64,000 bases of DNA. Origin: a virus (taxonomy: Duplodnaviria > Caudoviricetes). This document shows positions 4,206 to 55,470 of the stretch, piece after piece. The stretch's first letter is position 1; each line of letters begins with the position of its first letter. A program made the translations under genes and the position numbers. The stretch lies in the IMG/VR virus record IMGVR_UViG_3300047157_000186. The stretch is one strand, 5' to 3'. Under the pieces are notes generated by a model that was not told the origin of the DNA, did no database searches, and saw only the letters and a list, made by a program, of their open reading frames with translations.

Positions 4206-7200
4206 ATGGCTTTACCACAAGGAATACAAAGAGTTAACTTTTTATCTCATTCAGCACCATCTGAAGGTTTAATACATTCTATCGCACAAAAGGGTGGTTA
4301 TCAAGAAATGATAACAGTTGGAGAAAGAAATAGTATACCTCTTTTTGAAAATGGAGTTTCAACATATACAGGTTTTACAATATCGGATGACATTTGGTCA
4401 TCAGGTAGAAGAAGAGTTGGTATGATGATTCATGTTGTAGAAGATAAAAAAATATTTAATTTAATTCCCGTTGGTTTCTTTGGAAACGGTGGTGATTTAG
4501 GAGAAGCTGATTGGTTAGCTTTACCAGAATGGGAAAGAGCATTAAGAATAGATCCTGCAGGAACTTACTGTGCTGCGGGTGCAACTCCAGCAAATGGTTT
4601 TACTGCTGAACAAAAAACGGCTGCAGATATAGGAATATCTAATGATCCTAATGGATGTTGGGTAGAATTATCATTATCTGGAGAAAGCGGAGCTGATGGA
4701 ACTTCAGGTGTAGATGGAGCTGATGGAGCACAAGGAGTAAATGGGAACGATGGAACTTCAGGTGTAGATGGATCCTCAGTAAATTTCATGACTACTTCAA
4801 CTGATATACACTCAAATAATGCAAACGGTACTTTAACAGTAGATCCTGGATTATCTTATATAGGTGGCGAATATATTTCGATTACACAACCATTAGATAT
4901 GACTAATGTACAAATTGCAATAGTAACTGCTTACAGTAATACGCAATTAACATTTTCACACGTATCAAATAACGGTAACTTATTAAATAGTAACGGTCCT
5001 TGGATTATTAATCTAAGTAGTGTACCTGGTCAAACAGGAGCAGATGGAACATCAGGAGTTGATGGAAACGATGGAACTTCTGGTAGTAATGGAACTTCTG
5101 GTATTAATGGACTCGCTGGAACTTCAGGAAATGACGGTGTTAATGGAACATCAGGAGTTGATGGAACATCAGGAAAAGATGGTTCTAATGGAGAAGATGG
5201 TGAAGATGGAGTTAATGGAACTTCTGGTATCAATGGAACTTCTGGTATCGATGGAACTTCTGGTATCGATGGAGTTAGTGGAACTTCTGGTATAGATGGA
5301 ACTTCTGGTATAGATGGAACTTCTGGTATTAATGGAACTTCAGGAGTTGATGGAAACGCTGGAACTTCTGGTGTAGATGGAACTTCTGGAACAGATGGAG
5401 ATTCAATAGAATTTGCAACTTCATTTAATGGTCCACATAGTCTCGGTGAAGACAGAAATCCAGGTAACCAAGATTTAGGTTCGGTAACAGTAGATACTGG
5501 TTTATCATATCAAGGTGGTGAATACGTTATAGTATCTTTAGATGCCAGTCCGGATGATTTTGATATAGTACAAGTAACTTCATATGATAGTTCTACTGGT
5601 GTAATGATGTGGAATAACGTTTATCAAAGTACAGAATCTTCATTTAGTTCTAATTGGAATATCAACTTAACTGGTATACCAGGTATTAAAGGTGATGATG
5701 GAGCTACAGGTGCCGATGGTGTTGATGGTAGAGGAATCTCTTCTATTACAATAGACGACGATGGTAACATGATAATTGTTTATACGAACGGTGATGGTGC
5801 TACTTTACCAAATGTTGGCGGTGAAGATGGAACATCTGGAGTAGATGGAACTTCTGGTGCAGATGGAACTTCAGGAGTTGATGGAACTTCAGGTATTAAA
5901 GGAGAAGATGGAACTTCAGGAATTAATGGTATAGATGGAACTTCAGGTGTAACACCAATAAAAGGTGAAGATTATACTGATGGAACTTCAGGAAAAGACG
6001 GTGCAGATGGAACTTCAGGAGTTGATGGAAACAATGGAACTTCTGGTGCAGATGGAACTTCAGGAGTTGATGGAACTTCAGGTATTAAAGGAGAAGATGG
6101 AACTTCAGGAGTTGATGGTCCACGAGGTGGAGTAGGACCAGGTGTTAATTTTAAAGGAGAAGTTGAAACAGAAGCAAATTTACCGGAAGAAGGCAATCAA
6201 CAAGGTGACGCATATATTGTACAAGCAGATGATAGTTTCTGGATGTGGAACGGAACAAATTGGATTAATGGTGGATCAATACAAGGTGCATCAGGAACTT
6301 CAGGTAAAGATGGAACCTCAGGAGTTGATGGAAACGATGGAACTTCAGGAGTAGATGGAACTTCAGGAAAAGACGGTGAAGATGGAACTTCAGGTAGAGA
6401 TGGCGCAGATGGTACATCTGGAGCTGATGGTGCTGATGGTGATCATGGAACATCAGGTATAAGCGGAACTTCAGGTACAACTCCAATAAAAGGTGAAGAT
6501 TATGTAGATGGAACTTCAGGAAAAGACGGTGAAGATGGAACTTCAGGAGTAAGCGGAACTTCAGGAGTTGATGGAACTTCAGGAGTTGATGGAACTTCAG
6601 GTAGAGATGGAACATCTGGAATTAATGGTACATCAGGTGCAACACCAATAAAAGGTGAAGATTATAACGATGGAACTTCAGGAATTAATGGAACATCAGG
6701 TGTAACACCAATAAAAGGTGAAGATTATGTAGATGGAACTTCAGGAAAAGACGGCGAAGATGGAACTTCAGGTAGAGATGGAACTTCAGGAATTAATGGT
6801 ACATCTGGAATTAACGGTACATCTGGAATTAACGGTGTAAACGGAACTTCAGGTGTAAACGGAACATCTGGAATTAATGGTACATCAGGTATAAGTGGAA
6901 CTTCAGGTGTAACACCAATAAAAGGTGAAGATTATACTGATGGAACTTCAGGAAAAGACGGTGAAAATGGAACTTCAGGTAGAGATGGAACAAGTGGATC
7001 TTCAGGAGTAACTGGTAATCCAGGAACATCAGGTGTAAGTGGAACTTCTGGTGTAAGTGGATCAAGTGGATCTTCAGGAACTGATGGATCGAGCGGATCT
7101 TCGGGAAGAAATGGAACTTCAGGTATAACGCCAATAAAGGGTGAAGATTATGTAGATGGAACTTCAGGAAAAGACGGTGAAGATGGAACTTCTGGTATAG

Positions 7201-8939
7201 ACGGAACATCTGGAACTAATGGTTCTTCTGGATCTTCAGGTGAAGATGGTGGTAGAGGAAATGATGGAAGTTCAGGAACTGATGGAACTTCAGGTAAAGA
7301 TGGATCAAGTGGAACTTCAGGATCAAGTGGTTCTTCAGGAACTAATGGATCAAGTGGAACTAATGGTACATCAGGTACAACACCAATAAAAGGTGAAGAT
7401 TATGTAGATGGTGAAAACGGCACATCAGGTAAAGATGGAACTTCAGGTAGAAATGGTGAAAATGGAACATCAGGATCAAGTGGAACTAACGGAACTTCTG
7501 GTACAGATGGTAGTTCAGGTTCGAGTGGAAGCTCAGGAACTAATGGAAGTTCAGGAACTAATGGTACAAGTGGAACTAATGGAACTAGCGGAAGCTCAGG
7601 TTCATCAGGAACTAACGGAACTTCAGGTATAACACCAATAAAAGGTGAAGATTACACTGATGGAACTTCTGGAAAAGATGGAACTTCTGGAACTTCTGGA
7701 ACTAACGGAACTTCTGGTACAGATGGTAGTTCAGGTTCGAGTGGAAGCTCAGGAACTGATGGAAGTTCAGGAACTGATGGAACTTCTGGTTTAGCTGGAA
7801 CTTCAGGTAAAGATGGAACTTCAGGTATAACACCAATAAAAGGTGAAGATTATACTGATGGAACTTCAGGTAAAGATGGAACTTCAGGTACAAATGGTAC
7901 TTCTGGAACAAATGGTACAAGTGGAACTGACGGTTCTTCTGGAACAAATGGTACAAGTGGAACTGACGGAACAAGTGGAACTGACGGAACTTCTGGTACT
8001 AATGGTAGTTCAGGTACAACTCCAATAAAAGATGAAGATTATACTGATGGAACTTCAGGTAAAGATGGAACTTCAGGAACTGATGGAACTTCAGGTAAAG
8101 ATGGAACTTCAGGAACTGATGGATCAAGTGGAACTGACGGGACTTCAGGAACTGATGGAACTTCAGGAACTGATGGAACTTCAGGAACTGATGGAACAAG
8201 TGGAACTGATGGAACTTCAGGTGTAACACCAATAAAAGGTGAAGATTATACTGATGGAACTTCAGGTAAAAACGGAGACCCTGGAACTTCAGGTACAAAT
8301 GGATCAAGTGGAACTGACGGAACTTCAGGAACTGACGGAACTTCAGGAACTGATGGAACAAGTGGAACTGACGGAACTTCAGGAACAAACGGTACATCAG
8401 GTAAAACACCAGTAAAAGGTGAAGATTATACAAATGGAACTTCAGGAACAAACGGAAGCTCAGGTACAAATGGAACTTCAGGAAGAGATGGTAGTGGAAC
8501 TAGTGGAACTTCAGGTAATTCTGGATCGCGTGGAACAGGATCATGTTGGGAACATATAGCTCTTAATCCAGTTGCAAGAGACGTAACAGTCACAAATAAT
8601 GGATTGCAAAAGGCATTCGTAAAGGTGCCATTTACATTTGAAAATGAAGGATATGAATTAAGATGGATAGAATCATCATATGGTACTGTTAATAACACAG
8701 CTAACGTAGTATATACTTTAAACGGTGTAAGTAGCAACGGTGCAGTAAGTAGCATTGCAACATGGACACATAGTGCTAATAATAAATTTGCAATTTCACC
8801 GGTAATGGAAAAAGTAAATACTGACTCTAAATATTTATATGTTACAGCTTCAAATCAAGACTTTTCAGCAAAAGGATTTACTGTAACCTTAGAGTTTGTG
8901 AACAATGATAGTGACTGTTATGATTACACAGATATGTAA
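4206..8939 (+). CDS. 1577-aa collagen-like fibre protein with Gly-Thr-Ser repeats
   Basis: Hundreds of Gly-X-Y triplets (GTS/GxD/GxN); 12 TP(I/V)K(G/D)EDY interruptions; one GDAYIV..W knot module; globular ends. Confidence 0.8.
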
Positions 8940-32873: not shown

Positions 32874-35800
32874 ATGCCAACTGTTTCAAATCAAAACTTA
32901 ATCGTAGTATTACCAGAATTAGCTAGGATAGTTAGAGGACAATCATCAAGTATTGGAATCACACTACACCAAGACCACGTAGGTAATCAACTAAACATCG
33001 GGGTAACCGATAACGTAATCGTAGATGTTTATAACGCTGAAAATCAATTAATATATTCAGTAAGTAAATCTAATGGTACCTTATTATTTGGTGCTGCAAA
33101 TACTGATTTACGAGGTGCTATATCACTTGAATTTAGTGCAGAACAAACTGCTGCATTACCATTTGGAGATTTAAATTTCCATGGTGCTATTAAATGTAAA
33201 ATCACAGTAGTTAGAGGAATTACACAAACACAACTACCAACATTAAAACTTGCCAACATCTATGATGCTGGTGATAAAATAGGTGATATAGTTGCAAGTA
33301 GATTCACATTACCAGGTGCTGTATATAAAGTTAAGTCTTTAAGTTCTACAGACAAACCTGCAGGAGGAGAATTAGTTGTAAATGATGAAGATCCTAATGG
33401 TGTTACTAAAATTAGAATTGCTTTAACAGACGATAAAGGATATAGAAATAATTATTTAGAGTCTATATTATTAAATAGAATCAATGTTGACGGAGTTAAA
33501 GTTTCTTTATTCTTAACTAACGTAAATAACAATAGTGAATATTCTGTATTTGAAATCAAAAGCTGGTCATATGTAGATGTATTAAATGTTAATCCTAGTA
33601 ATCCAATAAACAACGATTCAAGTGATGCTATTGAATTACAAGTACAATCAGAAGGAAATTCATTTATCCCTGGATCTGATTACAAGATCGGAGTAGGTGA
33701 TGAACTTGGTATATTTAGTGAATCTTATTCTTCACCTTCAGGTATTTCAATTATACCACAAGGCGCTGTAGCTATTGACGATGTTAATAGTCTTACGTTT
33801 TCAGGAGGTGCAGTTATTAATAATTTAAATGACGGAAAAGTTGAAGTTGTTTTCCCTTCAGTAACAGTTACAACTTCTGGAACATCTGGTTCTTCAGGAA
33901 TTGATGGTTCTTCAGGAATTGATGGTGCTAAAGGTGATCAAGGTGATGCTGGTGTTCAAGGTGAACAAGGTATAAGAGGATTAGATGGAACTTCAGGTAA
34001 AGATGGTGAAACTGGTGGAACTGGAGCACAAGGTCAAGACGGAACTTCAGGCACTGATGGAACAAGCGGAGTTGATGGAGCGCAAGGTCTAAGAGGATTA
34101 GATGGAACTTCAGGTAAAGACGGTTTAGCTGGAACATCTGGTATTAATGGAATTAACGGTCAAGCTGGAACTTCAGGACTTGATGGTGCTAAAGGTGACG
34201 ATGGAACTTCAGGTATTAACGGAGTTAATGGAGTTAATGGAGTTGACGGTGCTAAAGGTGATCAAGGTGAACAAGGTAATCAAGGACCGCAAGGACCTAA
34301 AGGAGATAAAGGTGACGCTGGAGCTAAAGGTGATATAGGTAATGCTGGAACATCTGGTATTAGTGGAACATCAGGAATTAATGGAACATCAGGAATTGAT
34401 GGAACAAGCGGAGTTAATGGAGTTGACGGTGTACAAGGTCTTAAAGGTGATCAAGGTGCAAGAGGTAATGACGGAACATCAGGTAAAGATGGAGCCAATG
34501 GAGTTGATGGAAACCATGGAACTTCAGGAGTTTCAGGTTCTTCAGGAGTTGATGGAACATCAGGTAAAGATGGAATAAACGGAAACGATGGAGCTAAAGG
34601 TGACAGAGGTGATCAAGGACTTCCAGGAAATAATGGTAACGATGGAACTTCAGGAGTTAACGGAACTTCAGGAGTTAACGGAACAAGTGGAGTTGACGGT
34701 GCTAAAGGTGATCAAGGTAATATTGGTAACAATGGTGTAGACGGAACTTCAGGAATTAGTGGAACATCTGGTATTGACGGAACTTCAGGAGTTAATGGAG
34801 TTGACGGAAACGACGGAACTTCAGGTGTTGATGGAACATCAGGAATTAATGGAGCTAAAGGTGATCAAGGTGATCAAGGACCTAAAGGTGATCAAGGCGA
34901 CGCTGGAGCTAATGGAGTTGACGGAAACAATGGAACTTCAGGAGTTAGTGGAACATCTGGTATTGACGGAACTTCAGGAGTTAATGGAGTTGACGGAAAC
35001 GACGGAACTTCAGGACTTTCTGGAACATCAGGAATTAATGGAACATCAGGAATTGATGGAGTTAAAGGTGATCAAGGTGACGCTGGAACTTCTGGAATTA
35101 ATGGAGTTAAAGGTGATCAAGGTGACGCTGGAACTTCAGGAGTTGATGGAACTTCAGGTGTTGATGGTGGCACTGGAACTTCAGGAGTTGATGGAACATC
35201 AGGAATTAATGGAGCTAAAGGTGATCAAGGTGACGCTGGAACTTCAGGAGTTGATGGAACTTCAGGTGTCGATGGAACTTCAGGTGCCGATGGTGGCGCT
35301 GGAACTTCAGGAGTTGATGGAACATCAGGAATTAATGGAGCTAAAGGTGATCAAGGTGACGCTGGAACTTCAGGAGTTAATGGAACATCTGGAACAAATG
35401 GAACTTCAGGAGTTAATGGAACATCAGGAATTAATGGAGTTAAAGGTGATCAAGGTGACGCTGGAACTTCAGGTATTGATGGTGTTGACGGAGCTAATGG
35501 ATCCACTGGACCACAAGGACCGGAAGGGCCGCAAGGGCCGACAGGAGCATCAGGTGCAAATGGATCTGGAATTGCAGGTGGAGGAACAACAGGACAAGCA
35601 CTTGTTAAATCTTCAAATGTTGATTACGAAGTTGAATGGTCAGACGTTGCAACTGGATCAGGTGGAACTTATTACTGTGTAAGAGCAGAATATACTTCAA
35701 CGCAAGCTTTAGGTGGATGTGAATTTATCGATCCAAGTGGATCAGGTGTATTTGAAACATCTAACGCAACTATAGGAACACGTGCTGGTGATAATCAAGA

Positions 35801-36119
35801 ATTTTCATTCAGTGGTCAAAATCAACCACCAAGAGCAATTCTTGTATATGCATATCAAGCCAACAATTCAAGATACGTTATAACGCATTTAGATGGTGGT
35901 GGTAACAACGCATCATTCTATGCACAAGGTATTACAGAATCTGCACACACATCTAACTTTAGTATTGGTAATCAAGTTACAACTGATTTATTCACTAACT
36001 TCAGTGCAGCTAAAATTAAATTAGATTTAAGTATGGGTAATATTGATGCCATAAGAAATGCTGGTGGATTTGGTCAAACAACTAAAGAAGCTCACGCATT
36101 TATAATATTCAAATTTTAA
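32874..36119 (+). CDS. 1081-aa collagen-like fibre protein rich in G-X-K-G
   Basis: Globular N-part, ~570-aa Gly-X-Y region with about 16 G-X-K-G sites, GTTGQALVKSS motif, C-terminal head. Confidence 0.8.
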   Translation: MPTVSNQNLIVVLPELARIVRGQSSSIGITLHQDHVGNQLNIGVTDNVIVDVYNAENQLIYSVSKSNGTLLFGAANTDLRGAISLEFSAEQTAALPFGDLNFHGAIKCKITVVRGITQTQLPTLKLANIYDAGDKIGDIVASRFTLPGAVYKVKSLSSTDKPAGGELVVNDEDPNGVTKIRIALTDDKGYRNNYLESILLNRINVDGVKVSLFLTNVNNNSEYSVFEIKSWSYVDVLNVNPSNPINNDSSDAIELQVQSEGNSFIPGSDYKIGVGDELGIFSESYSSPSGISIIPQGAVAIDDVNSLTFSGGAVINNLNDGKVEVVFPSVTVTTSGTSGSSGIDGSSGIDGAKGDQGDAGVQGEQGIRGLDGTSGKDGETGGTGAQGQDGTSGTDGTSGVDGAQGLRGLDGTSGKDGLAGTSGINGINGQAGTSGLDGAKGDDGTSGINGVNGVNGVDGAKGDQGEQGNQGPQGPKGDKGDAGAKGDIGNAGTSGISGTSGINGTSGIDGTSGVNGVDGVQGLKGDQGARGNDGTSGKDGANGVDGNHGTSGVSGSSGVDGTSGKDGINGNDGAKGDRGDQGLPGNNGNDGTSGVNGTSGVNGTSGVDGAKGDQGNIGNNGVDGTSGISGTSGIDGTSGVNGVDGNDGTSGVDGTSGINGAKGDQGDQGPKGDQGDAGANGVDGNNGTSGVSGTSGIDGTSGVNGVDGNDGTSGLSGTSGINGTSGIDGVKGDQGDAGTSGINGVKGDQGDAGTSGVDGTSGVDGGTGTSGVDGTSGINGAKGDQGDAGTSGVDGTSGVDGTSGADGGAGTSGVDGTSGINGAKGDQGDAGTSGVNGTSGTNGTSGVNGTSGINGVKGDQGDAGTSGIDGVDGANGSTGPQGPEGPQGPTGASGANGSGIAGGGTTGQALVKSSNVDYEVEWSDVATGSGGTYYCVRAEYTSTQALGGCEFIDPSGSGVFETSNATIGTRAGDNQEFSFSGQNQPPRAILVYAYQANNSRYVITHLDGGGNNASFYAQGITESAHTSNFSIGNQVTTDLFTNFSAAKIKLDLSMGNIDAIRNAGGFGQTTKEAHAFIIFKF

Positions 36120-41466: not shown

Positions 41467-44190
41467 ATGTCTCAATTGAAACTAAAACAAATACTTGACT
41501 TTTTATCTTCTTCACCAACAACAGGTGAGGTATTGTCATATAATTCAAGTACCGGAAAGTATGAAAACCAACAATTACCAAACACGTTTGGTCTTCCTTA
41601 TGTTTATAATAGCGCAACAAATCCCACGACAGTTTCTTCTGGTGATTTAGCGTTTGATAATCCTAGTAATCCTAGTAAAATAATTATAAGTGAAACTAAT
41701 GCTAGAGGTGGTTCTGCAACTGTAACATTAAATGCTGCAGTCGCTTCATCGAATAATTATAAATCTATTATTGTATTAGCAAAATCAACTGACGGTAATG
41801 CAAATAAATCATTCTATGTAACAGGAAACACAACTGCTTCTGGACAAAGAACATTTAGCTTACAACCTATTTCAAGTTCTAATTGGAACAATGTTAGTGA
41901 TAATGATTCTTTGTTTATGTTTATCCAACCTATCGGTGATGTTGGAACATCAGGAACTTCAGGATCAAATGGTTCAAGTGGAAGTTCAGGAACTAATGGA
42001 ACGAGCGGTGTAAGTGGAACTTCAGGTTCTTCAGGAACTAATGGATCAAGTGGATCTTCAGGAACTAATGGAACTTCAGGAACTGATGGAACTAGCGGAT
42101 CTTCAGGTTCAAGTGGAAGTTCAGGAACAGATGGAACTTCAGGAACGAATGGAACTTCAGGTACTAATGGATCAAGTGGATCTTCAGGAACTGATGGAAC
42201 AAGTGGAGTTAAAGGTGATCAAGGTGATAATTATAGTGGAGCAACTTTATCTGGGAATAATTTAATATTGACGCATTCTGTCAATGGAGCTGAAAATGTA
42301 GGTAGAGTAGTATATGTTGGAACTTCAGGAACTGATGGTTCAAGCGGAAGTTCAGGTTCAAGCGGATCTTCAGGAATTACAGGTACAATTGCAGTAGGAA
42401 CAGTATCTACTGGTTTAGAAAATACTCCAGTAAGTGTTACTAATACTGGAACATCAACTGCAGCAGAATTTGATTTTACTATTCCTGTTGGTGCAACTGG
42501 AGCAAAAGGTGCTCCTGGAACTCCAGCTATTAATGGAACTAGTGGATCTTCTGGATCTAGTGGTGTTAAAGGAGACAAAGGAGCTCCAGGTACAAGTGGT
42601 ACTGATGGAACTTCAGGAACTAACGGAAGTTCAGGAACTGACGGTTCAAGTGGAAGTTCAGGTTCAAGTGGAAGTTCAGGAACTGATGGAACTTCAGGAA
42701 CGAATGGAACTTCAGGAACGAATGGAACTTCAGGAACTGATGGATCAAGTGGTTCTTCTGGAACTGATGGAAGTTCAGGAACTGACGGAACTTCAGGAAC
42801 GAATGGAACTTCAGGAACGAATGGAACTAGCGGATCTTCAGGTTCAAGTGGAAGTTCAGGTACTGATGGAACTTCAGGAACTAATGGAACTTCAGGAACG
42901 AATGGAACTAGTGGAACTAATGGAAGTTCAGGTTCTTCAGGAACTGACGGAACTAGTGGAACTAACGGAAGTTCAGGAACTGATGGAACTTCTGGTACAA
43001 ATGGTACAAGTGGAACGAATGGAACAAACGGAAGTTCAGGTTCTTCAGGAACAAATGGAACAAACGGATCTTCAGGATCAAGTGGATCTTCAGGTGCACA
43101 AGGTAATCCAGGTTGGGGTGTTTCAATGCAAGGACAAGTAGCTACATCATCAAATTTACCAACATCTGGTAATTCAGATGGTGATGCATATATAGTACAA
43201 TCAGACGATTCTCTTTGGGTATTTACACAAGCAGACGGTTGGATTGGCGGTGGTTCTATTCAAGGACCAGCTGGTTCTTCAGGAACTAATGGAACAAATG
43301 GAAGTTCAGGTTCTTCAGGAACTGATGGAACTTCAGGATCAAGTGGAAGTTCAGGTACTGATGGAACTTCAGGAACGAATGGAACAAGTGGAACTGATGG
43401 AACTTCAGGATCAAGTGGATCAAGTGGAAGTTCAGGTACTGATGGAACTTCAGGAACGAATGGAACAAGTGGTACTGATGGAACTTCAGGATCAAGTGGA
43501 TCAAGTGGAAGTTCAGGTACTGACGGAACCTCAGGAACGAATGGAACTTCAGGTTCTTCAGGAACTGATGGAACAAGTGGAACTAATGGAACTTCAGGAT
43601 CAAGTGGATCAAGCGGAACTTCAGGAACGAATGGAACTAGTGGAACGAATGGAACTTCAGGAACGAATGGAACTTCAGGAACGAATGGAACTTCAGGTTC
43701 TTCAGGAACGAATGGAACAAACGGATCTTCTGGATCGAGTGGTTCTTCAGGTTCTTCAGGTCTAAAAGGTAATACTGGTACTTCTAATACCTATGCAACT
43801 GCGATGAATCAACATACAAAAACAGATTCAAATGTTGAGCATCATGATTTATATTTAACAGGTGCTTTAAAAAGAGATTTTATATCTGTTAACGGTGTTG
43901 GCGGTGTTTATGACATCAAACCTGATCAAGGTGACGCATTCGTATTTACAGCAACTGGTTTAATTGATATCACAATGTCTAATATAGGTTCTGACAACGT
44001 AGGTCAATCTGGAACTATAGTAATCATAAACGGTGCAGGTGCAGGATACAATGCATTACCATCTTATATGAAAACACCTTCAGGTGCTGACATTCAATGG
44101 GTAACTACTCAAGGTGCAGTATCTATTATATCGTATATTATAATAGATGTTGACGCTGTATTAGTTAACTACATTGGAAATTTTGCGTAA
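41467..44190 (+). CDS. 907-aa Gly-Ser/Thr collagen-like fibre protein
   Basis: [12 protein letters not shown] triplets; knot module GDAYIVQSDDSLW; N-terminal QLKLKQI. Confidence 0.8.
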   Translation: MSQLKLKQILDFLSSSPTTGEVLSYNSSTGKYENQQLPNTFGLPYVYNSATNPTTVSSGDLAFDNPSNPSKIIISETNARGGSATVTLNAAVASSNNYKSIIVLAKSTDGNANKSFYVTGNTTASGQRTFSLQPISSSNWNNVSDNDSLFMFIQPIGDVGTSGTSGSNGSSGSSGTNGTSGVSGTSGSSGTNGSSGSSGTNGTSGTDGTSGSSGSSGSSGTDGTSGTNGTSGTNGSSGSSGTDGTSGVKGDQGDNYSGATLSGNNLILTHSVNGAENVGRVVYVGTSGTDGSSGSSGSSGSSGITGTIAVGTVSTGLENTPVSVTNTGTSTAAEFDFTIPVGATGAKGAPGTPAINGTSGSSGSSGVKGDKGAPGTSGTDGTSGTNGSSGTDGSSGSSGSSGSSGTDGTSGTNGTSGTNGTSGTDGSSGSSGTDGSSGTDGTSGTNGTSGTNGTSGSSGSSGSSGTDGTSGTNGTSGTNGTSGTNGSSGSSGTDGTSGTNGSSGTDGTSGTNGTSGTNGTNGSSGSSGTNGTNGSSGSSGSSGAQGNPGWGVSMQGQVATSSNLPTSGNSDGDAYIVQSDDSLWVFTQADGWIGGGSIQGPAGSSGTNGTNGSSGSSGTDGTSGSSGSSGTDGTSGTNGTSGTDGTSGSSGSSGSSGTDGTSGTNGTSGTDGTSGSSGSSGSSGTDGTSGTNGTSGSSGTDGTSGTNGTSGSSGSSGTSGTNGTSGTNGTSGTNGTSGTNGTSGSSGTNGTNGSSGSSGSSGSSGLKGNTGTSNTYATAMNQHTKTDSNVEHHDLYLTGALKRDFISVNGVGGVYDIKPDQGDAFVFTATGLIDITMSNIGSDNVGQSGTIVIINGAGAGYNALPSYMKTPSGADIQWVTTQGAVSIISYIIIDVDAVLVNYIGNFA

Positions 44191-47665: not shown

Positions 47666-47724
47666 TAGAGAATAATCTAGAAGATAAAGAAATGAAATAT
47701 ATAAAAAAATAACAGAGATAGAAA

Positions 47725-50649
47725 ATGCCTACTACTTATTTTAATACAACATGGTTAACTGCTGGCTCTAGAAATACGTACGTATCTACTACAAAGACTA
47801 GGTCTACTTCCAGATACACGTCATATAATAGGGTAACTTCGAGAAATACGGCGAAGACTACATATTGGAACGTAAGTACAAGTAAGGCAACGACAACATC
47901 ATGGACTACTAAAGTTACTACTTCATGGAACACAACTAGGGGAACAACGACATCGAGAAGCACAAACCAACAAACATCTCATGCAACAACAACTACATGG
48001 AATACAACTAGAGCTACAACGACTACATGGAATACAACTAGAACAACCGAAACAAAATGGAACACAACTAAGTCAACGACTACATCATTTAATACATCTT
48101 GGAATACAACTCGAGCTACAACTACAACGTTTGCAACTAGTAAGGCAACGGCAACAACATTTAGTACAAGTCAGTCAACTGCTAAAGACACAACGACAAC
48201 ATGGAATACAACTAGAGCAACATTAACAACATGGGTCACAAGTAGATCAACTGAACGTGCTACGACAACAACATGGAATACAACTCGAGCTACGACAACA
48301 ACGTTCAATACAACTCGTGCAACGACAACTACATTTGCAACTAGTAAATCGACAACGACTGTATTTAATACATCTTGGAATACAAGTAAGAATACGACTA
48401 CTACATTTGCAACTAGTAAATCCACTAGAACTACTTGGACAACTTCATGGAATACAACTCGAGCTACAACTACAACGTTTAATACAACTCGAGCTACAAC
48501 TACCACGTGGTCTACAAGTCAGTCAACGTCTCATTCGACAACGACTACGTTTGTAACTAGTAAAAATACAACGACTACGTTTAAAACTAGTAAATCAACG
48601 ACTACATCGTATAACACATCTTGGAATACAACTAGGTCAACGACAACAACGTTTAATACTTCCAAGTCAACAACGACTACGTTTATAACTAGTAGGTCAA
48701 CAGAGCGTGTTACTACAACTACATGGGCAACTAGTAAATCTACGACTACTACATTTGCAACAAGTAAATCTACTACAACAACATTTGTAACTAGTAGAGG
48801 AACAGAACATTCCACGACTACTACATTTGCAACTAGTAAATCGACAACAACTACGTTTATAACTAGCCAGTCAACTAGAACTACTTGGACTACAACATGG
48901 TCAACTAATAGATCAACGACAACAACGTTCAATACAACTCGTGCAACGACAACTACATTTAACACAAGTCAATCGACAAGTAAATCCACTAAAACAACAT
49001 GGACAACTTCTTGGAATACTGTCAGAGGAACTAGTAAAGTAACTAGTAAATCGACAACGACTACGTTTAACACAAGTCAATCGACGAGTAGAGCAACTAC
49101 AACAACATGGACTACTACTTGGGCAACATCAAGAAATACAACTAGAGGAACTAGTAAAACGACAACGACTACGTTTAACACAAGTCAATCGACTGAAAGA
49201 GAAACGACTACTGTTTATAACACGTCATGGAACACAACGAGAACTACGATAACTTCATACACTACTTCATGGACTACTTCATGGAATACAAGTAGAGGCA
49301 CATCGAAAACTACAACAACAGTTTATAATACATCATGGTCAACTAGTAAATCAACTGTAACTACATTCAATACTACTTGGATAACAAATCAGAATACAAC
49401 GAGATCTACTTCTAGAACAACAACTACTACTTTTAATACAAGTCAGTCAACTTCTAGAACAACGACTACGTCGTATAACACATCTTGGAACACTACAAGA
49501 TCCACTGAAACTGCATGGACTACTTCATGGGTGACAACGTTTAATACAAACAGGTCAACGTATAAAAATACAACGACTACGTTTACAACAACATGGTCAA
49601 CTAGTAAATCTACAACGACTACGTTTACAACTACGTTCACAACAACGTTTAATACTAATCAGTCAACAAGTAAATCTACAACGACTACATTTAATACAAC
49701 GTGGTCAACTAGTAGAGCAACGACTACGAGTTATACAACTTCATGGACTACTTCATGGAACACAACTAGAGGAACAGAACATGTGACTACTACTGTTTAT
49801 AACACGTCATGGAACACAACTAGATCGACAACTACAGTTTACAATACTTCATGGACAACTTCATGGAACACAACTAGAGGAACAGAACATTCGACTACGA
49901 CTACGTTTACAACAACATGGTCAACTAGTAAATCAACTGTAACTACGTTCAACACTACTTGGACTACGTCATGGAACACAACTTATGGAACGTCTCATTC
50001 AACTACGACAACGTTTAATACGTCTCAGTCTACAAATCATGGAACGTCTCATTCGACAGTAACTATATGGAGTACATCTAGAGGAACTAACAAAGGAACA
50101 GAACACGCAACGACAACTGCATGGACAACGACTTGGGAAACTAGTAGAATTACGAACTATTCACGTACGACATCATGGACTACGCAATATCAAACTAGTC
50201 AGTCAACGGTAACTACATTTAACACAACGTGGTTAACAACATTTAATACCAATCAGTCAACAACAACTGCATGGGTGACATCGTGGGTGACAACATTTAG
50301 TACGTCTCAAACAACGTCTAAAACGACAACGACTACATTTAACACAAGTCACTCGACAACGACAACGTTTAATACGACTAGATCAACTACGACTACATTC
50401 AATACGAATGCAGCTACATCTAAATCGACAACGACAACGTGGTCAACTATTTATAGTGTTACTACTTCGTGGAATACTGCATGGAACACAACAACAACGT
50501 GGAACACGACGAGATCTACAACAAGTGCTATTACTACAACGTGGAGTACAGATTACGAAGTGCAAGAAACTTGGTATTCAACTAACGCACCATTAGATGT
50601 TTATAATACAAATAGACAATGGAGAGTAAACAGTTATAACGGTAACTAG
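47725..50649 (+). CDS. 974-aa Thr-rich repeat protein
   Basis: Same repeat grammar as the 44216 ORF, with no Hint domain. Confidence 0.8.
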   Translation: MPTTYFNTTWLTAGSRNTYVSTTKTRSTSRYTSYNRVTSRNTAKTTYWNVSTSKATTTSWTTKVTTSWNTTRGTTTSRSTNQQTSHATTTTWNTTRATTTTWNTTRTTETKWNTTKSTTTSFNTSWNTTRATTTTFATSKATATTFSTSQSTAKDTTTTWNTTRATLTTWVTSRSTERATTTTWNTTRATTTTFNTTRATTTTFATSKSTTTVFNTSWNTSKNTTTTFATSKSTRTTWTTSWNTTRATTTTFNTTRATTTTWSTSQSTSHSTTTTFVTSKNTTTTFKTSKSTTTSYNTSWNTTRSTTTTFNTSKSTTTTFITSRSTERVTTTTWATSKSTTTTFATSKSTTTTFVTSRGTEHSTTTTFATSKSTTTTFITSQSTRTTWTTTWSTNRSTTTTFNTTRATTTTFNTSQSTSKSTKTTWTTSWNTVRGTSKVTSKSTTTTFNTSQSTSRATTTTWTTTWATSRNTTRGTSKTTTTTFNTSQSTERETTTVYNTSWNTTRTTITSYTTSWTTSWNTSRGTSKTTTTVYNTSWSTSKSTVTTFNTTWITNQNTTRSTSRTTTTTFNTSQSTSRTTTTSYNTSWNTTRSTETAWTTSWVTTFNTNRSTYKNTTTTFTTTWSTSKSTTTTFTTTFTTTFNTNQSTSKSTTTTFNTTWSTSRATTTSYTTSWTTSWNTTRGTEHVTTTVYNTSWNTTRSTTTVYNTSWTTSWNTTRGTEHSTTTTFTTTWSTSKSTVTTFNTTWTTSWNTTYGTSHSTTTTFNTSQSTNHGTSHSTVTIWSTSRGTNKGTEHATTTAWTTTWETSRITNYSRTTSWTTQYQTSQSTVTTFNTTWLTTFNTNQSTTTAWVTSWVTTFSTSQTTSKTTTTTFNTSHSTTTTFNTTRSTTTTFNTNAATSKSTTTTWSTIYSVTTSWNTAWNTTTTWNTTRSTTSAITTTWSTDYEVQETWYSTNAPLDVYNTNRQWRVNSYNGN

Positions 50650-50667
50650 AAATAACTCAATTAATTT

Positions 50668-50697
50668 AAAAAGCATACTTCGGTATGCTTTTTTTTT
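50668..50697 (+). terminator. Rho-independent terminator
   Basis: AAAAAGCATAC-TTCG-GTATGCTTTTT plus T-run. Confidence 0.9.
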
Positions 50698-50771: not shown

Positions 50772-51683
50772 ATGGAAATGTTTAACAAAAAGGTTCTAGA
50801 TGAAAGAATTGGGCCTCTAAAGAAAAACACAAAATTAGAACCGCTTGAACAAGTAGAGCGATACGTTTTAAGAAAATGTAGAGAACTTGGATTAGAACAC
50901 AGTTATGATGTTATAGCAGAAGAAATGCCATACTTCAAAACAATGGGATATACAGAATATGCCACTTGTTTTTTACTGCAACCACTAAACCTTAAAATGA
51001 GAAGAGAACAAGTAGCCGACGCTTTAGCACATGATGTCGAACACGTTTCTGATTGGGTATCTTATTTTAGAGAAAACATAGAAAAAGACCAAGCTAATAA
51101 ATATCAAAAGCGCAACAAAGACTTCGACAGATATGAAGATAAAAGCACTTTGGTTATTTTACCAGGTTCAAATAAGCTTAAAGAAAACTGTTGTTTAAAT
51201 AAATTAATTGAAGTTGCTGATAAACACAAAGGTGATGTTTATTTTAAACCACATCCTATTACTACACATGCAGTCATAGGCGAAATTAAAGATTTATTTG
51301 GTGAAGAATCTATTTTACCTAGAGACATAGATCTTTATTACTTTTTACAAAAAGCTAAAACAGTATATAGCACACATATTAGTGAAAGCGCATTATATTC
51401 TGTTGTCCTTGAAAAAGAAGTTTATCCAATGGATGTGTGGAATAATATAAGTAGAGGATCTTTTTATACTATAAACTCCAGTCTTTATGATAATAAAGAA
51501 AGAGGCGCAGAATGGATTAATCAAGTATTTTCTAGTTACAAATCTGGAATTATAAATCCAGCTATTGATGAAGATTGGAAAGGTAAAGTAGATGATTACA
51601 TGAATTATATGTATGAAAAAAGAGAATATTACAAAGGTTGGTTTATAGACGCTCCACCTAAAGTTAAAAGAAATAAGAACTAA
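50772..51683 (+). CDS. Capsule-synthesis (KpsS/KpsC-like) GT-B domain protein
   Basis: VYFKPHP and V.STH.SESAL..VVLEKEV resemble the KxHP / T.NS..G.EA.L..KPV motifs. Confidence 0.45.
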   Translation: MEMFNKKVLDERIGPLKKNTKLEPLEQVERYVLRKCRELGLEHSYDVIAEEMPYFKTMGYTEYATCFLLQPLNLKMRREQVADALAHDVEHVSDWVSYFRENIEKDQANKYQKRNKDFDRYEDKSTLVILPGSNKLKENCCLNKLIEVADKHKGDVYFKPHPITTHAVIGEIKDLFGEESILPRDIDLYYFLQKAKTVYSTHISESALYSVVLEKEVYPMDVWNNISRGSFYTINSSLYDNKERGAEWINQVFSSYKSGIINPAIDEDWKGKVDDYMNYMYEKREYYKGWFIDAPPKVKRNKN

Positions 51684-51693
51684 ATTATAAATT

Positions 51694-51720
51694 AAACCTA
51701 CACTCGTGTGGGTTTTTTTT
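51694..51720 (+). terminator. Rho-independent terminator
   Basis: AAACCTACA-CTCG-TGTGGGTTT followed by a T-run. Confidence 0.6.
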
Positions 51721-51732
51721 GCTACATTAATA

Positions 51733-52752
51733 ATGAGAATATTATTTTATGCGGGCTATCAAAAGAATAAATTTGATGGTGATACAAATGAAGGATTAGC
51801 AGGAACTGAAATTGCTATAATTAATATAGCCGAAGAGATGGTTAAATTTGGTTATAAGGTTGTGGTTTCTGGTGAAGTAAAAGATTCTGGTTTAATTAAT
51901 GGAGTAGAATGGATATCAACACATGAATTACATGAAAAATATTTTGATCAGTTTGATTATATTATATCTGCAAGTTATATTCATTTTTTAAAAGAGTTTG
52001 AAAAATATTCAGCAAAGAAAGTATTTTGGGCACATAATACACATCATCACCCATGGTGGAATCACGAAGTGTTAGAAGACGCAAACCTTTTAACACAACA
52101 AGTTGATCATACAATTTGTTTGACTAATTGGCATAAGAATCACTGGGCACATACATATAATATACCTTTAAATAAAATCTCGGTGATTGGTAATGCCATT
52201 GATCCTTCAACATTTAGTGGTACTCCTGAAAAAGTTAAAGGTAAATTCATATATAGTTCTGCACCCGAACGTGGCTTATTGGAATTATTAAAAAACTGGC
52301 CAAAGATAAAAACTATAATGCCACATGCAACACTAGACATTTATTCTCCTGGATATTCTATAGCAAATCATACTGACTATTCATTTAATAAGTTTAAAGA
52401 AGTAACATGTCACGGTAGTGTAGATCAAAAAACATTACATAATGCCATGCTACGTGCAGAATATTGGTGTTATATAACTGATTATGAAGAAACATATTGT
52501 ATAACTGCACTTGAAATGCAATATGCCAAAGTATTACCTATTGTTACTAAAGTTGCTGCATTAAAAGAAACTGTAAATAGTGGAGTTATCTTAGAAAGAA
52601 ATGAAACAAATTGGAATCAGGCTATACAAATACTAGGTACACTAAGTAGTGGACTTAAGGATAAATCAATTAATGATGCATATAAATGGTCTAAACAACA
52701 AACATGGAATGTTAGATCATATGATTGGAAAAACATATTAGAATCTATATGA
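51733..52752 (+). CDS. GT4-family (GT-B) glycosyltransferase
   Basis: GLAGTE, IGNAID, YSSAPERGL, ETYCI.ALE.Q. Start moved to ATG 51733 because the tracked GTG lies inside the terminator. Confidence 0.8.
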   Translation: MRILFYAGYQKNKFDGDTNEGLAGTEIAIINIAEEMVKFGYKVVVSGEVKDSGLINGVEWISTHELHEKYFDQFDYIISASYIHFLKEFEKYSAKKVFWAHNTHHHPWWNHEVLEDANLLTQQVDHTICLTNWHKNHWAHTYNIPLNKISVIGNAIDPSTFSGTPEKVKGKFIYSSAPERGLLELLKNWPKIKTIMPHATLDIYSPGYSIANHTDYSFNKFKEVTCHGSVDQKTLHNAMLRAEYWCYITDYEETYCITALEMQYAKVLPIVTKVAALKETVNSGVILERNETNWNQAIQILGTLSSGLKDKSINDAYKWSKQQTWNVRSYDWKNILESI

Positions 52753-54083
52753 AAATAGATAAAATTTATATTATAAGCTTGAACGCTGGAGATCCAAGCA
52801 TTCAAAGAAGTATTGCCGAGAGGGTAGATCAACTTGGTATGCCATATTCTGTAGCGTGGGAAATAGTTCAAGGTTTTGATGGAACTTCAGGCAATTTATT
52901 AGATGGACACAGTGTATATAATTTATGGAATTTAGGATCTGATTCATGGAATGATTGGTGGAAAAGAGATGTTACTGGCGGAGAAGCAGGTTGTGCAATT
53001 AGTCACTTAAATATATGGAAAAATATAATAGAAGACAATATCAATTGTGCATTAATACTAGAAGATGATTTTGTTTCAGTAGCTCCACTTACAAATCCAG
53101 TTATTCCAAACACAGAATGGGATATTGCATTTTTAGGTAGAAATGCTATATGTCCTAAGGATGAAAAAAGAATTGATGTAAGTAATAAATGGGTAACAGC
53201 ACTTAGTAGTTATAATACACATGCATATGTAATTAAAAGAGACGCTGCGAAAACGCTAGTCAATGATTACAACTTTCAACAAAATCTAATTGCGCCCGAT
53301 GAATTCTTAACGGCAACATATACAGATCATAGAAGACAAGATATTAATATACTGTTTCCACCAAAACTTAAAGCGATAGCTCCAGTTAATAATTGGATAG
53401 AACAAAATAGACCACACGAAAAATCCACGACAGAACCAAATGATGCCAATATTAATTTATTGAAAAAACAACCTTATTTCGAAATACTAGATGACAGTGA
53501 TTGGGATTCATGGAAATCAAAGTATGTAAACGAAACAGTGGCTAAGGGTGAATATGATTTAATGATAGATGATATAGGAAATAATATATATGAATTTCCA
53601 TTATTTACCGAAAAGTTCTGTAAAGAAGCAGTTGCTTTAGCAGAGGTTATGAATAAGTGGACAAAAGATAGACATGAATTTTATCCAACAAATGATGTCT
53701 TATTACCAGAAATAGGATTAGATAATATTTATAATAGAGTTATAAAAGAAATAGTTTCCCCACTTTGTATACATTTATGGGAATTAGAAGGTGCAGGTTG
53801 GGATAATATGAATACCGAAAACTTTATGGTAAGATATACTACTGATAGACAATCTCATTTAAGTTTACATCATGACTTTAGTCATATTACAATGGTAGTA
53901 AAATTAAATGATGAGTTTGATGGTGGCGGCACGTGGTTTCCAAAATATAAAATATTAGCAAATCCAAAATTAGTAGGTACTGCAACTATTCACCCTGGAA
54001 TGATCACACATAAACATGGTGCCAGACCAATACATAGTGGGAAAAGATACATCAACGTATCATTTATGAGAAAGAATAATTAA
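52749..54083 (+). CDS. Fusion of GT25 (collagen/LOS galactosyltransferase-like) and PLOD-type lysyl hydroxylase domain
   Basis: N: IYIISL, GEAGCAISH..IW, LILEDD, HAYVI. C: FPLFTEKFC, PTND, NFMVRY, SLHHD, GGGTWF, HPG.ITH.H, GKRYI.VSF. Confidence 0.8.
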   Translation: MKIDKIYIISLNAGDPSIQRSIAERVDQLGMPYSVAWEIVQGFDGTSGNLLDGHSVYNLWNLGSDSWNDWWKRDVTGGEAGCAISHLNIWKNIIEDNINCALILEDDFVSVAPLTNPVIPNTEWDIAFLGRNAICPKDEKRIDVSNKWVTALSSYNTHAYVIKRDAAKTLVNDYNFQQNLIAPDEFLTATYTDHRRQDINILFPPKLKAIAPVNNWIEQNRPHEKSTTEPNDANINLLKKQPYFEILDDSDWDSWKSKYVNETVAKGEYDLMIDDIGNNIYEFPLFTEKFCKEAVALAEVMNKWTKDRHEFYPTNDVLLPEIGLDNIYNRVIKEIVSPLCIHLWELEGAGWDNMNTENFMVRYTTDRQSHLSLHHDFSHITMVVKLNDEFDGGGTWFPKYKILANPKLVGTATIHPGMITHKHGARPIHSGKRYINVSFMRKNN

Positions 54084-54097
54084 CAAAACAAAACAAT

Positions 54098-54526
54098 ATG
54101 AAAAAAGAGATTACGTTTAACGAGATCATTGGAGATGACGGGCATTTAGTGTCACCTGTCTTAAAAAATGGCGCTAAGAATTATTTAATTGATATTGACG
54201 GTACAATTACTGATGATGTACCAAATGAAGAACCAGAAAGAATGTCAGTAGTTTTACCATATACTGGTGCTGTAGAAACACTTAACAGATGGTTTGACGA
54301 AGGACATGTAGTTACATTCTTTACATCAAGAACCGAAGAAGTTAGAGATATCACAGAAACTTGGCTAAATAAACATGGTTTTAAATATCATGGTCTATTA
54401 ATGGGTAAACCAAGAGGTGGAAATTATCATTGGGTTGATAACCACATTGTCAAGGGTACAAGATATGAAGGTAAGTGGGCAGATTTAGTTAGAGAAGAAA
54501 GAACGATAGAAGTGTTTCCTTCGTAG
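54098..54526 (+). CDS. Small HAD-superfamily phosphatase
   Basis: IDIDGT, FTSR, GKP, VD. Confidence 0.75.
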   Translation: MKKEITFNEIIGDDGHLVSPVLKNGAKNYLIDIDGTITDDVPNEEPERMSVVLPYTGAVETLNRWFDEGHVVTFFTSRTEEVRDITETWLNKHGFKYHGLLMGKPRGGNYHWVDNHIVKGTRYEGKWADLVREERTIEVFPS

Positions 54527-54537
54527 ATATATATTAA

Positions 54538-55470
54538 ATGAGAAGCATATACACATTTGAAGATTTTCTTTTAGAAGCTGATGAAACTGATCAGCTTAAA
54601 AAAATCTGTATCGCAGTTTCTGTAGAAATGCCAGATAATAAGTATGTATATGATTCTAAATATAACGTCTCTAAGGTATTTGAATTATTAGATAAAAATA
54701 AAAAAGCAGAACCTTCTGAAACACCAGTTCTTAATTATGCCAATTGGAAAATTGAGAAAATGATAAAAGACGGATGGGATTCTAAATTTATTTATAATTC
54801 AATTGAAGCTAAACAAAGAGTTTCTTCCAAAGTAAAATGGTGCAAAACTCATGAAGAATCTGAGCATACACCTAAAGTAGTTTTTGATAAATCAAATTTA
54901 AAAGAACTTAAATATCCTATCATAGCTAAACCAGATAATAGATATAGTGGACAGGGTATTATGGTTTTTAAAGAAGAAAAGGATTTAGAAGGTGTTGATT
55001 TAGATCAGTTTTCAGTTTTCTCAGAAAAGATAAATATCGTAGATGAACTTAGAATTTATTGTTGGAAAGGAAAACCTTTGATGCTAGTACATAGAGTGCC
55101 TGCAAATGAAGAAACAAAAAATCTATCTAAAAAAGCAGATGATAAACTGGTATTTAATTACGAATTATCAAAGTCACCTATAACAGAAAATTTAGTTAGT
55201 GTTGTTGAAGAATTTTCAAAAGAACATAATGATTTAGATTTTTATTCGGTAGATATTGTTATAGATGATAAAGATCATCCTTATGTTATTGAAATGTCAT
55301 CAGAACCTGGACCAGTTTTCGGTGTTATGGGACATGTATATAAAGAAATGTATAAGGACTATTATGGAGAAGATGTTTCGGATAAAACTAATAAAATAAT
55401 TGACGCTTATATAGAAGAGGACATTAATACAACGATTGCTTCAGATGAATCTAGATTCAAAAGAAGATAA
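54538..55470 (+). CDS. ATP-grasp (RimK-like) protein with N-terminal TFEDFLLE motif
   Basis: PIIAKP...SGQGI, E.RIY, YSVD, VIEM.S.PG. Confidence 0.65.
   Translation: MRSIYTFEDFLLEADETDQLKKICIAVSVEMPDNKYVYDSKYNVSKVFELLDKNKKAEPSETPVLNYANWKIEKMIKDGWDSKFIYNSIEAKQRVSSKVKWCKTHEESEHTPKVVFDKSNLKELKYPIIAKPDNRYSGQGIMVFKEEKDLEGVDLDQFSVFSEKINIVDELRIYCWKGKPLMLVHRVPANEETKNLSKKADDKLVFNYELSKSPITENLVSVVEEFSKEHNDLDFYSVDIVIDDKDHPYVIEMSSEPGPVFGVMGHVYKEMYKDYYGEDVSDKTNKIIDAYIEEDINTTIASDESRFKRR

Follow-up and report, generated by a model that had tools for sequence, protein, structure and literature searches.

The 64,000-nucleotide stretch of DNA analysed here (referred to as the window) comes from the IMG/VR virus record IMGVR_UViG_3300047157_000186 (Duplodnaviria; Caudoviricetes) and carries on its plus strand, at 52749..54083, a gene for a 444-aa protein, designated P0001, in which a GT25 glycosyltransferase domain is followed by a lysyl hydroxylase (LH) domain of the PLOD type. 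The gene starts with the ATG at 52749, which shares the tetranucleotide ATGA with the TGA of the upstream gene, and ends with the TAA at 54081-54083. The upstream TTG at 52725 was not accepted as the start of P0001, since the homologues share the start MKIDKIYIISL. The GT25 domain (residues 1-225; 52749..53423, plus strand) was delimited using Pfam PF01755, an alignment with COLGALT1 and Foldseek, and the LH domain (residues 245-444; 53481..54080, plus strand) by its fold and by alignment with 6ax6, the LH domain of mimivirus L230. The disordered linker between them (residues 231-240; 53439..53468, plus strand) had a predicted local distance difference test score (pLDDT) below 50 in the AlphaFold2 (AF2) model.

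The Pfam GT25 profile PF01755 matched residues 4-108 of P0001 with 60.8 bits (cut-off 24; 2.2e-16), and an OGFOD2-like match was sub-threshold. There was no Pfam match to GT_PLOD in P0001, which lacks the central PLOD glycosyltransferase/accessory region of the L230-type proteins and of human LH3. Among the PHROGs, '2OG-Fe(II) oxygenase' (2OG, 2-oxoglutarate) was matched at 6e-25 and 'glucosyltransferase' at 2e-11. A phmmer search of PDB aligned residues 253-440 with the L230 LH domain (6ax6) at 2.4e-29 and the LH half with human LH3 (6fxk) at 5.8e-23, and in a PDB sequence search residues 69-197 corresponded to the catalytic GT25 domain of COLGALT1 (approximately 2e-10 to 7e-10). The AF2 model, built with 42 homologues as input, consisted of two domains and had a mean pLDDT of 89.6. 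Using Foldseek, its LH part was superimposed on 6ax6_B with a TM(target) of 0.87, a root-mean-square deviation (rmsd) of 2.0 Å and 36 % identity over 203 columns. The match to LH3 reached an E-value of 3.6e-24, with an rmsd of about 17 Å against full LH3 due to the fact that the LH part alone corresponds. COLGALT1 (9evk) was matched with an E-value of 4.5e-15 and an rmsd of 3.1 Å over 236 columns, followed by mimivirus R655 and bacterial GT25 galactosyltransferases. An earlier note on this DNA, made without database searches, had read the protein as an N-terminal GT25 domain with a C-terminal PLOD catalytic core, and Pfam, phmmer and the AF2/Foldseek comparison for which it had called agree on this assignment.

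All eight motifs quoted in that note for the PLOD core were found within residues 283-439, at the positions FPLF 283, FC 290, PTND 313, NFMVRY 358, HHD 374, GGGTWF 392, HPGMITHKH 415 and GKRYINVSF 431. For the comparison of individual residues, L230 numbers were obtained by adding 660 to the 6ax6 chain index, an offset checked by the position of HHD, and the roles of the L230 residues (Fe ligands, 2OG ligands and dimer interface) were taken from PMC5802723. The H-x-D...H iron triad and the 2OG-binding arginine that had been pointed out are indeed present and align with L230: H374, D376 and H423 of P0001 correspond to H825, D827 and H877, and the 2OG C5-carboxylate ligands Y363 and R433 to Y814 and R887. 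The triad is retained in 40, 42 and 40 of 42 homologues, respectively. The L230 LH domain forms a tail-to-tail dimer with the conserved leucine L873 placed in an aromatic pocket (PMC5802723); the aligned residue of P0001 is I419, and V, I or L occupies this position in 41 of the 42 homologues. In the GT25 half the motifs GEAGCAISH (H86), LILEDDF (E105-D106-D107) and PDEFL (D184-E185) all align with COLGALT1, E105 and H86 being invariant and D107 kept in 41 of 42 homologues. Altogether the Fe and 2OG ligands and the GT25 residues H86, E105, D107 and D184-E185 are kept in 39 to 42 of the 42. On the evidence of sequence and modelled fold, P0001 is a fusion of GT25 with a PLOD-type LH whose catalytic apparatus is intact. 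The dN/dS ratio of the whole gene was 0.15 and 0.10 in comparison with same-lineage relatives of 97 % and 93 % identity, respectively, and by halves, versus close relatives, approximately 0.05 for LH and 0.17-0.18 for GT25. Such low values demonstrate that the GT25-LH gene is under purifying selection.

The upstream gene overlapping the start of P0001 (51733..52752, plus strand) encodes a GT4 glycosyltransferase with the GT-B fold (Pfam Glyco_transf_4/Glycos_transf_1). The ATG at 51733 was preferred as its start since the GTG at 51706 falls inside a terminator-like hairpin described below. In a related locus (L014) the two genes correspond to a single 824-aa protein, the first third of which is 32 % identical to the GT4 of the window (E 1e-49) and the remainder 42 % identical to P0001 (4e-101). 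Many further database relatives, of approximately 740-860 aa, carry GT4, GT25 and LH in one chain. Of the 57 non-redundant loci of the survey described below, 24 had GT4 in the same chain, 20 had it as an adjacent upstream gene and 7 had it downstream. Such fusions speak for GT4 acting in one pathway with GT25 and LH and point to a module of three enzymes, of which the window carries the GT4-coupled short form. That the GT4 protein takes part in extending the glycan may be put forward as a tentative assignment.

Three long proteins of the window are collagen-like, as the earlier note had stated, with Pfam Collagen scores of 1e-118, 4e-82 and 7e-70; a fourth and shorter one (2205-4097) also exceeded the Pfam Collagen threshold. 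Proline is nearly absent from them, and G-T-S, G-T-D and G-T-N triplets abound. The fibre protein encoded at 32874..36119 (plus strand; 1081 aa; Pfam Collagen 3.9e-82) contains 188 uninterrupted G-X-Y triplets, with 16 lysines at the Y position, the number given previously, nearly all of them in the context G-[AVPL]-K-G-D, and 4 lysines at X. It is, as judged from these sites, the likeliest substrate in the window genome. The protein encoded at 41467..44190 (plus strand; 907 aa) is rich in G-T-S and has 5 Y-position lysines (X-K-G) in approximately 168 triplets; among the collagens encoded upstream of the enzyme genes it is the closest, and the same position is occupied by collagen genes in related loci too. 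The largest one (4206..8939, plus strand; 1577 aa) has 314 triplets in 19 G-X-Y runs. The TPIKG kinks noticed in it earlier proved to be ten regularly spaced TPIKGEDY breaks in the G-X-Y register, each forming an I-K-G-E site. Unlike in the other collagens, its lysines within the runs are mostly at X (17 versus 3 at Y). The three proteins together contain 39 K-G dipeptides, and 22 of the 23 Y-position lysines lying within runs are followed by G-D or G-E. GXKG(E/D) is the motif of the glycosylated hydroxylysines (Hyl) of adiponectin and the collectins, and the K-G-D/E contexts in the window match it.

To place the locus in a wider context, IMG/VR was scanned with a profile, which gave 400 confirmed related matches, the best 80 full-length; 83 loci were analysed and reduced to 57 non-redundant ones. 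An open reading frame was counted as collagen-like when it lay on the same strand and had at least 40 triplets, and loci were counted when their upstream DNA extended over 3 kb or more. Among the loci with GT4 fused or adjacent upstream and with enough upstream DNA, a collagen-like open reading frame was found upstream of the enzyme in 35 of 36. The distance between collagen and enzyme genes was often below 1 kb, and 14-60 bp in many of the fused cases. In 10,945 triplets of these upstream collagens lysine was present 1864 times at Y and 26 times at X, and arginine 394 and 35 times, respectively. The density of Y-position lysine was approximately 17 % across the family, in comparison to 1-8.5 % in the window collagens. 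Higher values were observed for the collagens of two loci, L125 (2051-8764) and L127 (3003-8393), with lysine at Y in 279 of 509 and 189 of 520 triplets (36-55 %). The link of the enzyme to X-K-G-rich collagens, drawn in the earlier note from the window alone, thus gained the support of comparative genomics. Homologues of P0001 form 365 protein clusters at 90 % identity, and the GT25-LH module is common in uncultured marine phages.

The function that these data most probably point to is hydroxylation and glycosylation of the Y-position lysines of phage collagen-like fibres by the bifunctional P0001. The C-terminal Fe(II)/2OG dioxygenase would hydroxylate the Y-position lysine of G-X-K-G (here mostly G-x-K-G-D/E) in newly made fibre chains, and the N-terminal GT25 domain would next move a hexose, galactose or glucose, from a UDP-sugar onto the new hydroxyl group. 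The translationally coupled GT4 would probably extend or complement the glycan, in place of the PLOD glycosyltransferase domain of LH3 and L230. Substrate, order of reactions, sugar and the role of GT4 are inferred here. Several observations weigh against this interpretation. In the sub-lineage of the window the nearest collagen is poor in lysine (5 of 168 triplets) and is separated from the enzyme genes by two threonine-rich genes. In 11 of the 57 loci, those with GT4 downstream, elsewhere or absent, a collagen gene of at least 40 triplets within 10 kb was found in none. The Cytophagales and Thiothrix homologues (neighbourhoods in Dawidia and Thiothrix) have uninformative housekeeping neighbours and no adjacent collagen gene. 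As to the specificity of the GT4, it has no PDB relative, and its NCBIfam matches were far under the cut-off. Basic residues, lysine or arginine, at Y followed by aspartate or glutamate also stabilise triple helices, and therefore the Y bias alone is no proof of modification.

The closest known counterpart is mimivirus L230, the best PDB match of P0001, with the same Fe and 2OG ligands. The N-terminal domain of L230 shares 27.7 % identity with GLT25D1 and contains the putative DXD motif E106-D107-D108, and its C-terminus is an LH domain; L230 hydroxylates collagen lysines and adds glucose in vitro (both according to a 2022 review that cites Luther et al. 2011). L230 also has telopeptidyl LH activity (PMC5802723). 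Both proteins thus begin with a GT25-like domain and end with an LH domain, with the E-D-D motif at 106-108 in L230 and 105-107 in P0001, and both viruses encode proline-poor collagen-like proteins. The statement of the earlier note that the domain pairing differs from that of L230 consequently has to be withdrawn. Galactose as the sugar is an assumption: the homologous domain of L230 is described in the same source as transferring glucose from UDP-Glc. What does differ is the middle of the protein. L230 has 895 aa, and its relatives of approximately 900 aa consist of GT25, GT_PLOD (approximately 230-460) and LH, with an accessory region between the two ends; an 881-aa cluster of the ESM-Atlas with GT25, GT_PLOD and LH is labelled Nucleocytoviricota. 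The domains of P0001 are joined by a linker of approximately 20 aa, so about 450 aa of the L230-type middle are missing. L230, encoded by a giant virus and not by a tailed phage, belongs to the clade of long forms; in the P0001 lineage a GT4 enzyme is coupled or fused instead. By its predicted domain plan P0001 is a "mini-L230", in which the PLOD glycosyltransferase/accessory middle would have been lost and a GT4 partner recruited.

In humans the LH domain of P0001 has its homologue in approximately residues 516-713 of the crystallised chain of LH3/PLOD3 (PDB 6fxk), and its GT25 domain in the catalytic C-terminal GT25 domain of COLGALT1 (GLT25D1; PDB 9evj). The two human enzymes act in the pathway from Lys through Hyl and Gal-Hyl to Glc-Gal-Hyl, with the X-K-G target in G-X-Y repeats alike. 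In animals they are separate proteins of the endoplasmic reticulum lumen, held in a complex (8zgc), whereas P0001 is a single polypeptide, predicted to be cytoplasmic and having no signal peptide; it is without the PLOD glycosyltransferase and AC domains of LH3 and without the non-catalytic first GT25 domain of COLGALT1, and the identity is approximately 20-30 %. An intermediate plan is represented by phage and bacterial proteins of approximately 600-650 aa (e.g. P0190; Uroviricota clusters), which share the GT25 and LH ends and keep the PLOD-type GT-A domain, while the P0001 lineage is without that domain and is paired with GT4. The LH domain of P0190 groups with that of P0001. Hydroxylation of bacterial collagen-like proteins had been predicted by Iyer et al. 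2010, by dioxygenases of other families, and in a full-text literature search of incomplete coverage no publication was found that describes a phage GT25-LH fusion or PLOD-type hydroxylase.

It was also considered that the enzyme modifies other phage proteins, the candidates being the products of the two adjacent threonine-rich genes (44216-50649; 1149 and 974 aa), and that the glycosyltransferases decorate mucin-like chains. These proteins consist of 38-44 % threonine, interspersed at regular intervals with aromatic and basic residues (TSKST, TTRST), and gave no Pfam or PHROG match. In the sub-lineage of the window their genes immediately precede the enzyme cluster, and the adjacent collagen is lysine-poor; of the 78 lysines of the two proteins 38 are followed by serine and 28 occur in TSKST, and T-S-K-S-T resembles the X-K-S/A telopeptide sites accepted by LH2 and L230. 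However, the threonine-rich genes are confined to the closest relatives (L002 and L005-L007), while the pairing of enzyme and collagen spans the family. Lysine and arginine moreover interchange at one position of the repeat (TSKST, TSRST, TTRST), and therefore lysine is not specifically required there. We regard this explanation as unlikely.

A substrate in the host seems still more doubtful, with GT25 remodelling envelope glycans and the oxygenase acting on a host protein or small molecule. It would fit the fact that the GT25 family includes lipooligosaccharide (LOS) galactosyltransferases, and the homologues are annotated in their sources as hypothetical or as 'GR25 family glycosyltransferase involved in LPS biosynthesis' (LPS, lipopolysaccharide). 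Both halves of P0001 fall into the PHROGs category 'moron, auxiliary metabolic gene and host takeover', terminator-like hairpins part the enzyme genes from the structural genes, and the 11 related loci mentioned above are without a nearby collagen gene of at least 40 triplets. The GT25 domain, however, matches COLGALT1 best and not the LOS enzymes, both in Foldseek (4.5e-15 versus 5e-8) and in sequence searches (2e-10 versus 2e-4). The LOS beta-1,4-galactosyltransferases (8xlz, 8xc8) and mimivirus R655 share the GT-A fold of GT25 and the DxD region, but they are much weaker matches than COLGALT1 and carry no oxygenase in the same chain; the acceptor of the LOS enzymes is LOS. The oxygenase is specifically of the PLOD/L230 type, and the covalent fusion together with the 35/36 synteny with lysine-rich collagens fits a protein lysine as the substrate. 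It is very improbable that the gene has lost its function and persists through linkage, its lysine-rich collagen substrates having given way to G-T-S collagens, since the low Y-position lysine density of the window (1-8.5 % against about 17 % family-wide) that would speak for it has to be set against fully intact catalytic residues, dN/dS values of 0.05-0.18 versus same-lineage relatives and the persistence of 39 X-K-G sites in the three collagens, nearly all K-G-D/E. Modification of collagen lysines thus remains the preferred function, and the earlier note stands confirmed in what it observed and partly supported in how this was interpreted.

The evolutionary position of the LH domain was estimated from a tree of 138 rows calculated by a quick IQ-TREE run, midpoint rooting serving only for display. 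The long L230/LH3-like forms constituted one clade (support 98) with P0001 outside it; the neighbours of P0001 were P0041, a 641-aa GT25-GT_PLOD-LH protein and bacterial stand-alone LH proteins. Domain architectures switched many times in the tree. Chromosomal GT25-LH genes were found in Cytophagales (30-33 % identity to P0001), and LH-only genes in Thiotrichales and Aquimarina with 46-51 % identity over the LH half. Matches of 57 % and 41 % in metagenome-assembled genomes labelled 'Flavobacteriaceae' are probably binned phage contigs, one of these loci (L017) having phage synteny; such binning is the only hint at Flavobacteriaceae as hosts. Pfam Collagen was above the cut-off in three of five carrier genomes and in four of 14 control genomes, so the scan of the carriers is weak evidence. 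Chromosomal GT4-LH fusions of 560-580 aa without GT25 were encountered in Granulosicoccaceae, Chromatiales ex Bugula neritina and Aliishimia (L038-L041), and such bacterial fusions form one clade of the LH tree with support 99. According to this tree the LH domain of P0001 is part of a broad radiation in phages and bacteria. The description of the enzyme as eukaryote-like is not upheld, as hundreds of phage contigs as well as bacterial chromosomes carry homologues and the LH domain lies outside the L230/LH3 clade; this label reflects which members were studied first, not ancestry.

Two further database entries are worth recording. A Uroviricota cluster of the Atlas (533 aa) combines GT25 with a Tet_JBP oxygenase domain and may represent a hydroxylate-then-glycosylate enzyme of the same plan for DNA bases. 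One homologue cluster (P0059) was recorded on a contig of 104,430,999 bases, which may be a eukaryotic assembly with phage or bacterial contamination, or an insertion.

As regards the source of the window, the evidence favours a marine tailed jumbo phage, judging from gene content and relatives. Near-identical contigs were found in IMG/VR (97 % and 94 % identity), and a 212-kb IMG/VR contig (L010) has a homologue 56 % identical to P0001 in the same gene order. It also carries a Gp23-family capsid gene (154 bits) whose nearest relatives are in the metagenomic huge phages LR756500 (51 % identity) and then LR745206, and also in Lak phages. The window itself gave a baseplate/tail-fibre-connector match and matches to tail and baseplate PHROG families, those of the collagens via G-X-Y repeats. 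In a syntenic locus of 78 % identity (L002) the genes for HSP20, DnaJ, ribosomal protein S21, PhoH and RNase HII are situated downstream of the enzyme cluster (14074-17853), and ESM-Atlas clusters with the GT25-LH architecture are labelled Viruses/Uroviricota. The syntenic 212-kb relative with its gp23-type capsid and the Uroviricota clusters bear out the earlier attribution of the DNA to a bacteriophage. A giant-virus (Mimiviridae-like) origin had been suspected from the low GC content, the presence of collagens and of an L230-like enzyme, and a CheckV size estimate of approximately 390 kb, and was rejected on account of the gp23-type capsid close to huge and Lak phages, the PHROG tail and baseplate families and the Uroviricota labels in the Atlas. 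Megablast of the gene against isolate phages gave no match, and tblastn against them gave partial matches of 28-30 % alone, in Roseobacter phage CRP-6 and Synechococcus S-CAM9. The tblastn searches with the FtsH-like, PhoH and glycosyltransferase proteins of the window gave no placement of the lineage. In the window, 10 copies of the T4 late-promoter motif TATAAATA were counted versus 10.8 expected, and so it is not enriched.

The remaining genes and signals around the enzyme cluster are as follows. A hairpin with a T-run resembling an intrinsic terminator (50668..50693, plus strand) is located after the threonine-rich genes and divides the structural from the enzyme genes, and a second terminator-like hairpin (51694..51715, plus strand) is positioned directly before the GT4 and GT25-LH pair. 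Between the two hairpins, just upstream of GT4, there is an open reading frame of 303 aa (50772-51683; phrog_26179, unknown function), present in the nearest relatives only. Downstream of P0001 the window encodes a HAD-type phosphatase (54098-54526, plus strand; weak Pfam/NCBIfam matches) and an ATP-grasp ligase (54538-55470, plus strand; weak R2K, TTL and D-Ala-D-Ala-ligase-like matches). This pair is present downstream in most loci with GT4 adjacent upstream and may constitute a further protein or glycan modification step. A second glycan-related cluster (10890-15338 and 39561-40772) encodes a glycosyltransferase, HtrL_YibB and a NAD-dependent epimerase/dehydratase, then a DUF2827 protein (6e-77). 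Its glycosyltransferase (phrog_24687, 5e-175) is 42-46 % identical to proteins of XacN1, Xoo-sp13, CM1 and RAS14, jumbo phages of Xanthomonas and Stenotrophomonas.

To our knowledge, glycosylation of collagen Hyl is regarded as confined to animals, mimivirus L230 being the one exception among viruses. The family described here would place this chemistry in tailed phages at scale, and homologues lie on bacterial chromosomes as well; it would bear on the origin of the collagen modification enzymes and would add post-translational modification to the biology of phage fibres. P0001 would supply a 444-aa enzyme of the bacterial cytoplasm for the production of hydroxylated or glycosylated recombinant collagen, and the GT4 fusion is a concrete candidate for a new enzyme extending Hyl glycans. 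It is possible, though at present doubtful, that GT4, GT25 and LH make up a self-contained route from Lys through Hyl and hexosyl-Hyl to dihexosyl-Hyl, in which a GT-B enzyme replaces the PLOD GT-A domain, giving animal-like fibre glycans as an ancient phage or bacterial trait. If so, abundant marine phages would bear animal-like Hyl-linked glycans on their tail or head fibres, in some phages on more than half of all triplets, and these glycans would serve host recognition or protection of the fibre. Collagen lysine glycosylation would then be an ancient phage and bacterial trait and not an invention of animals or giant viruses.

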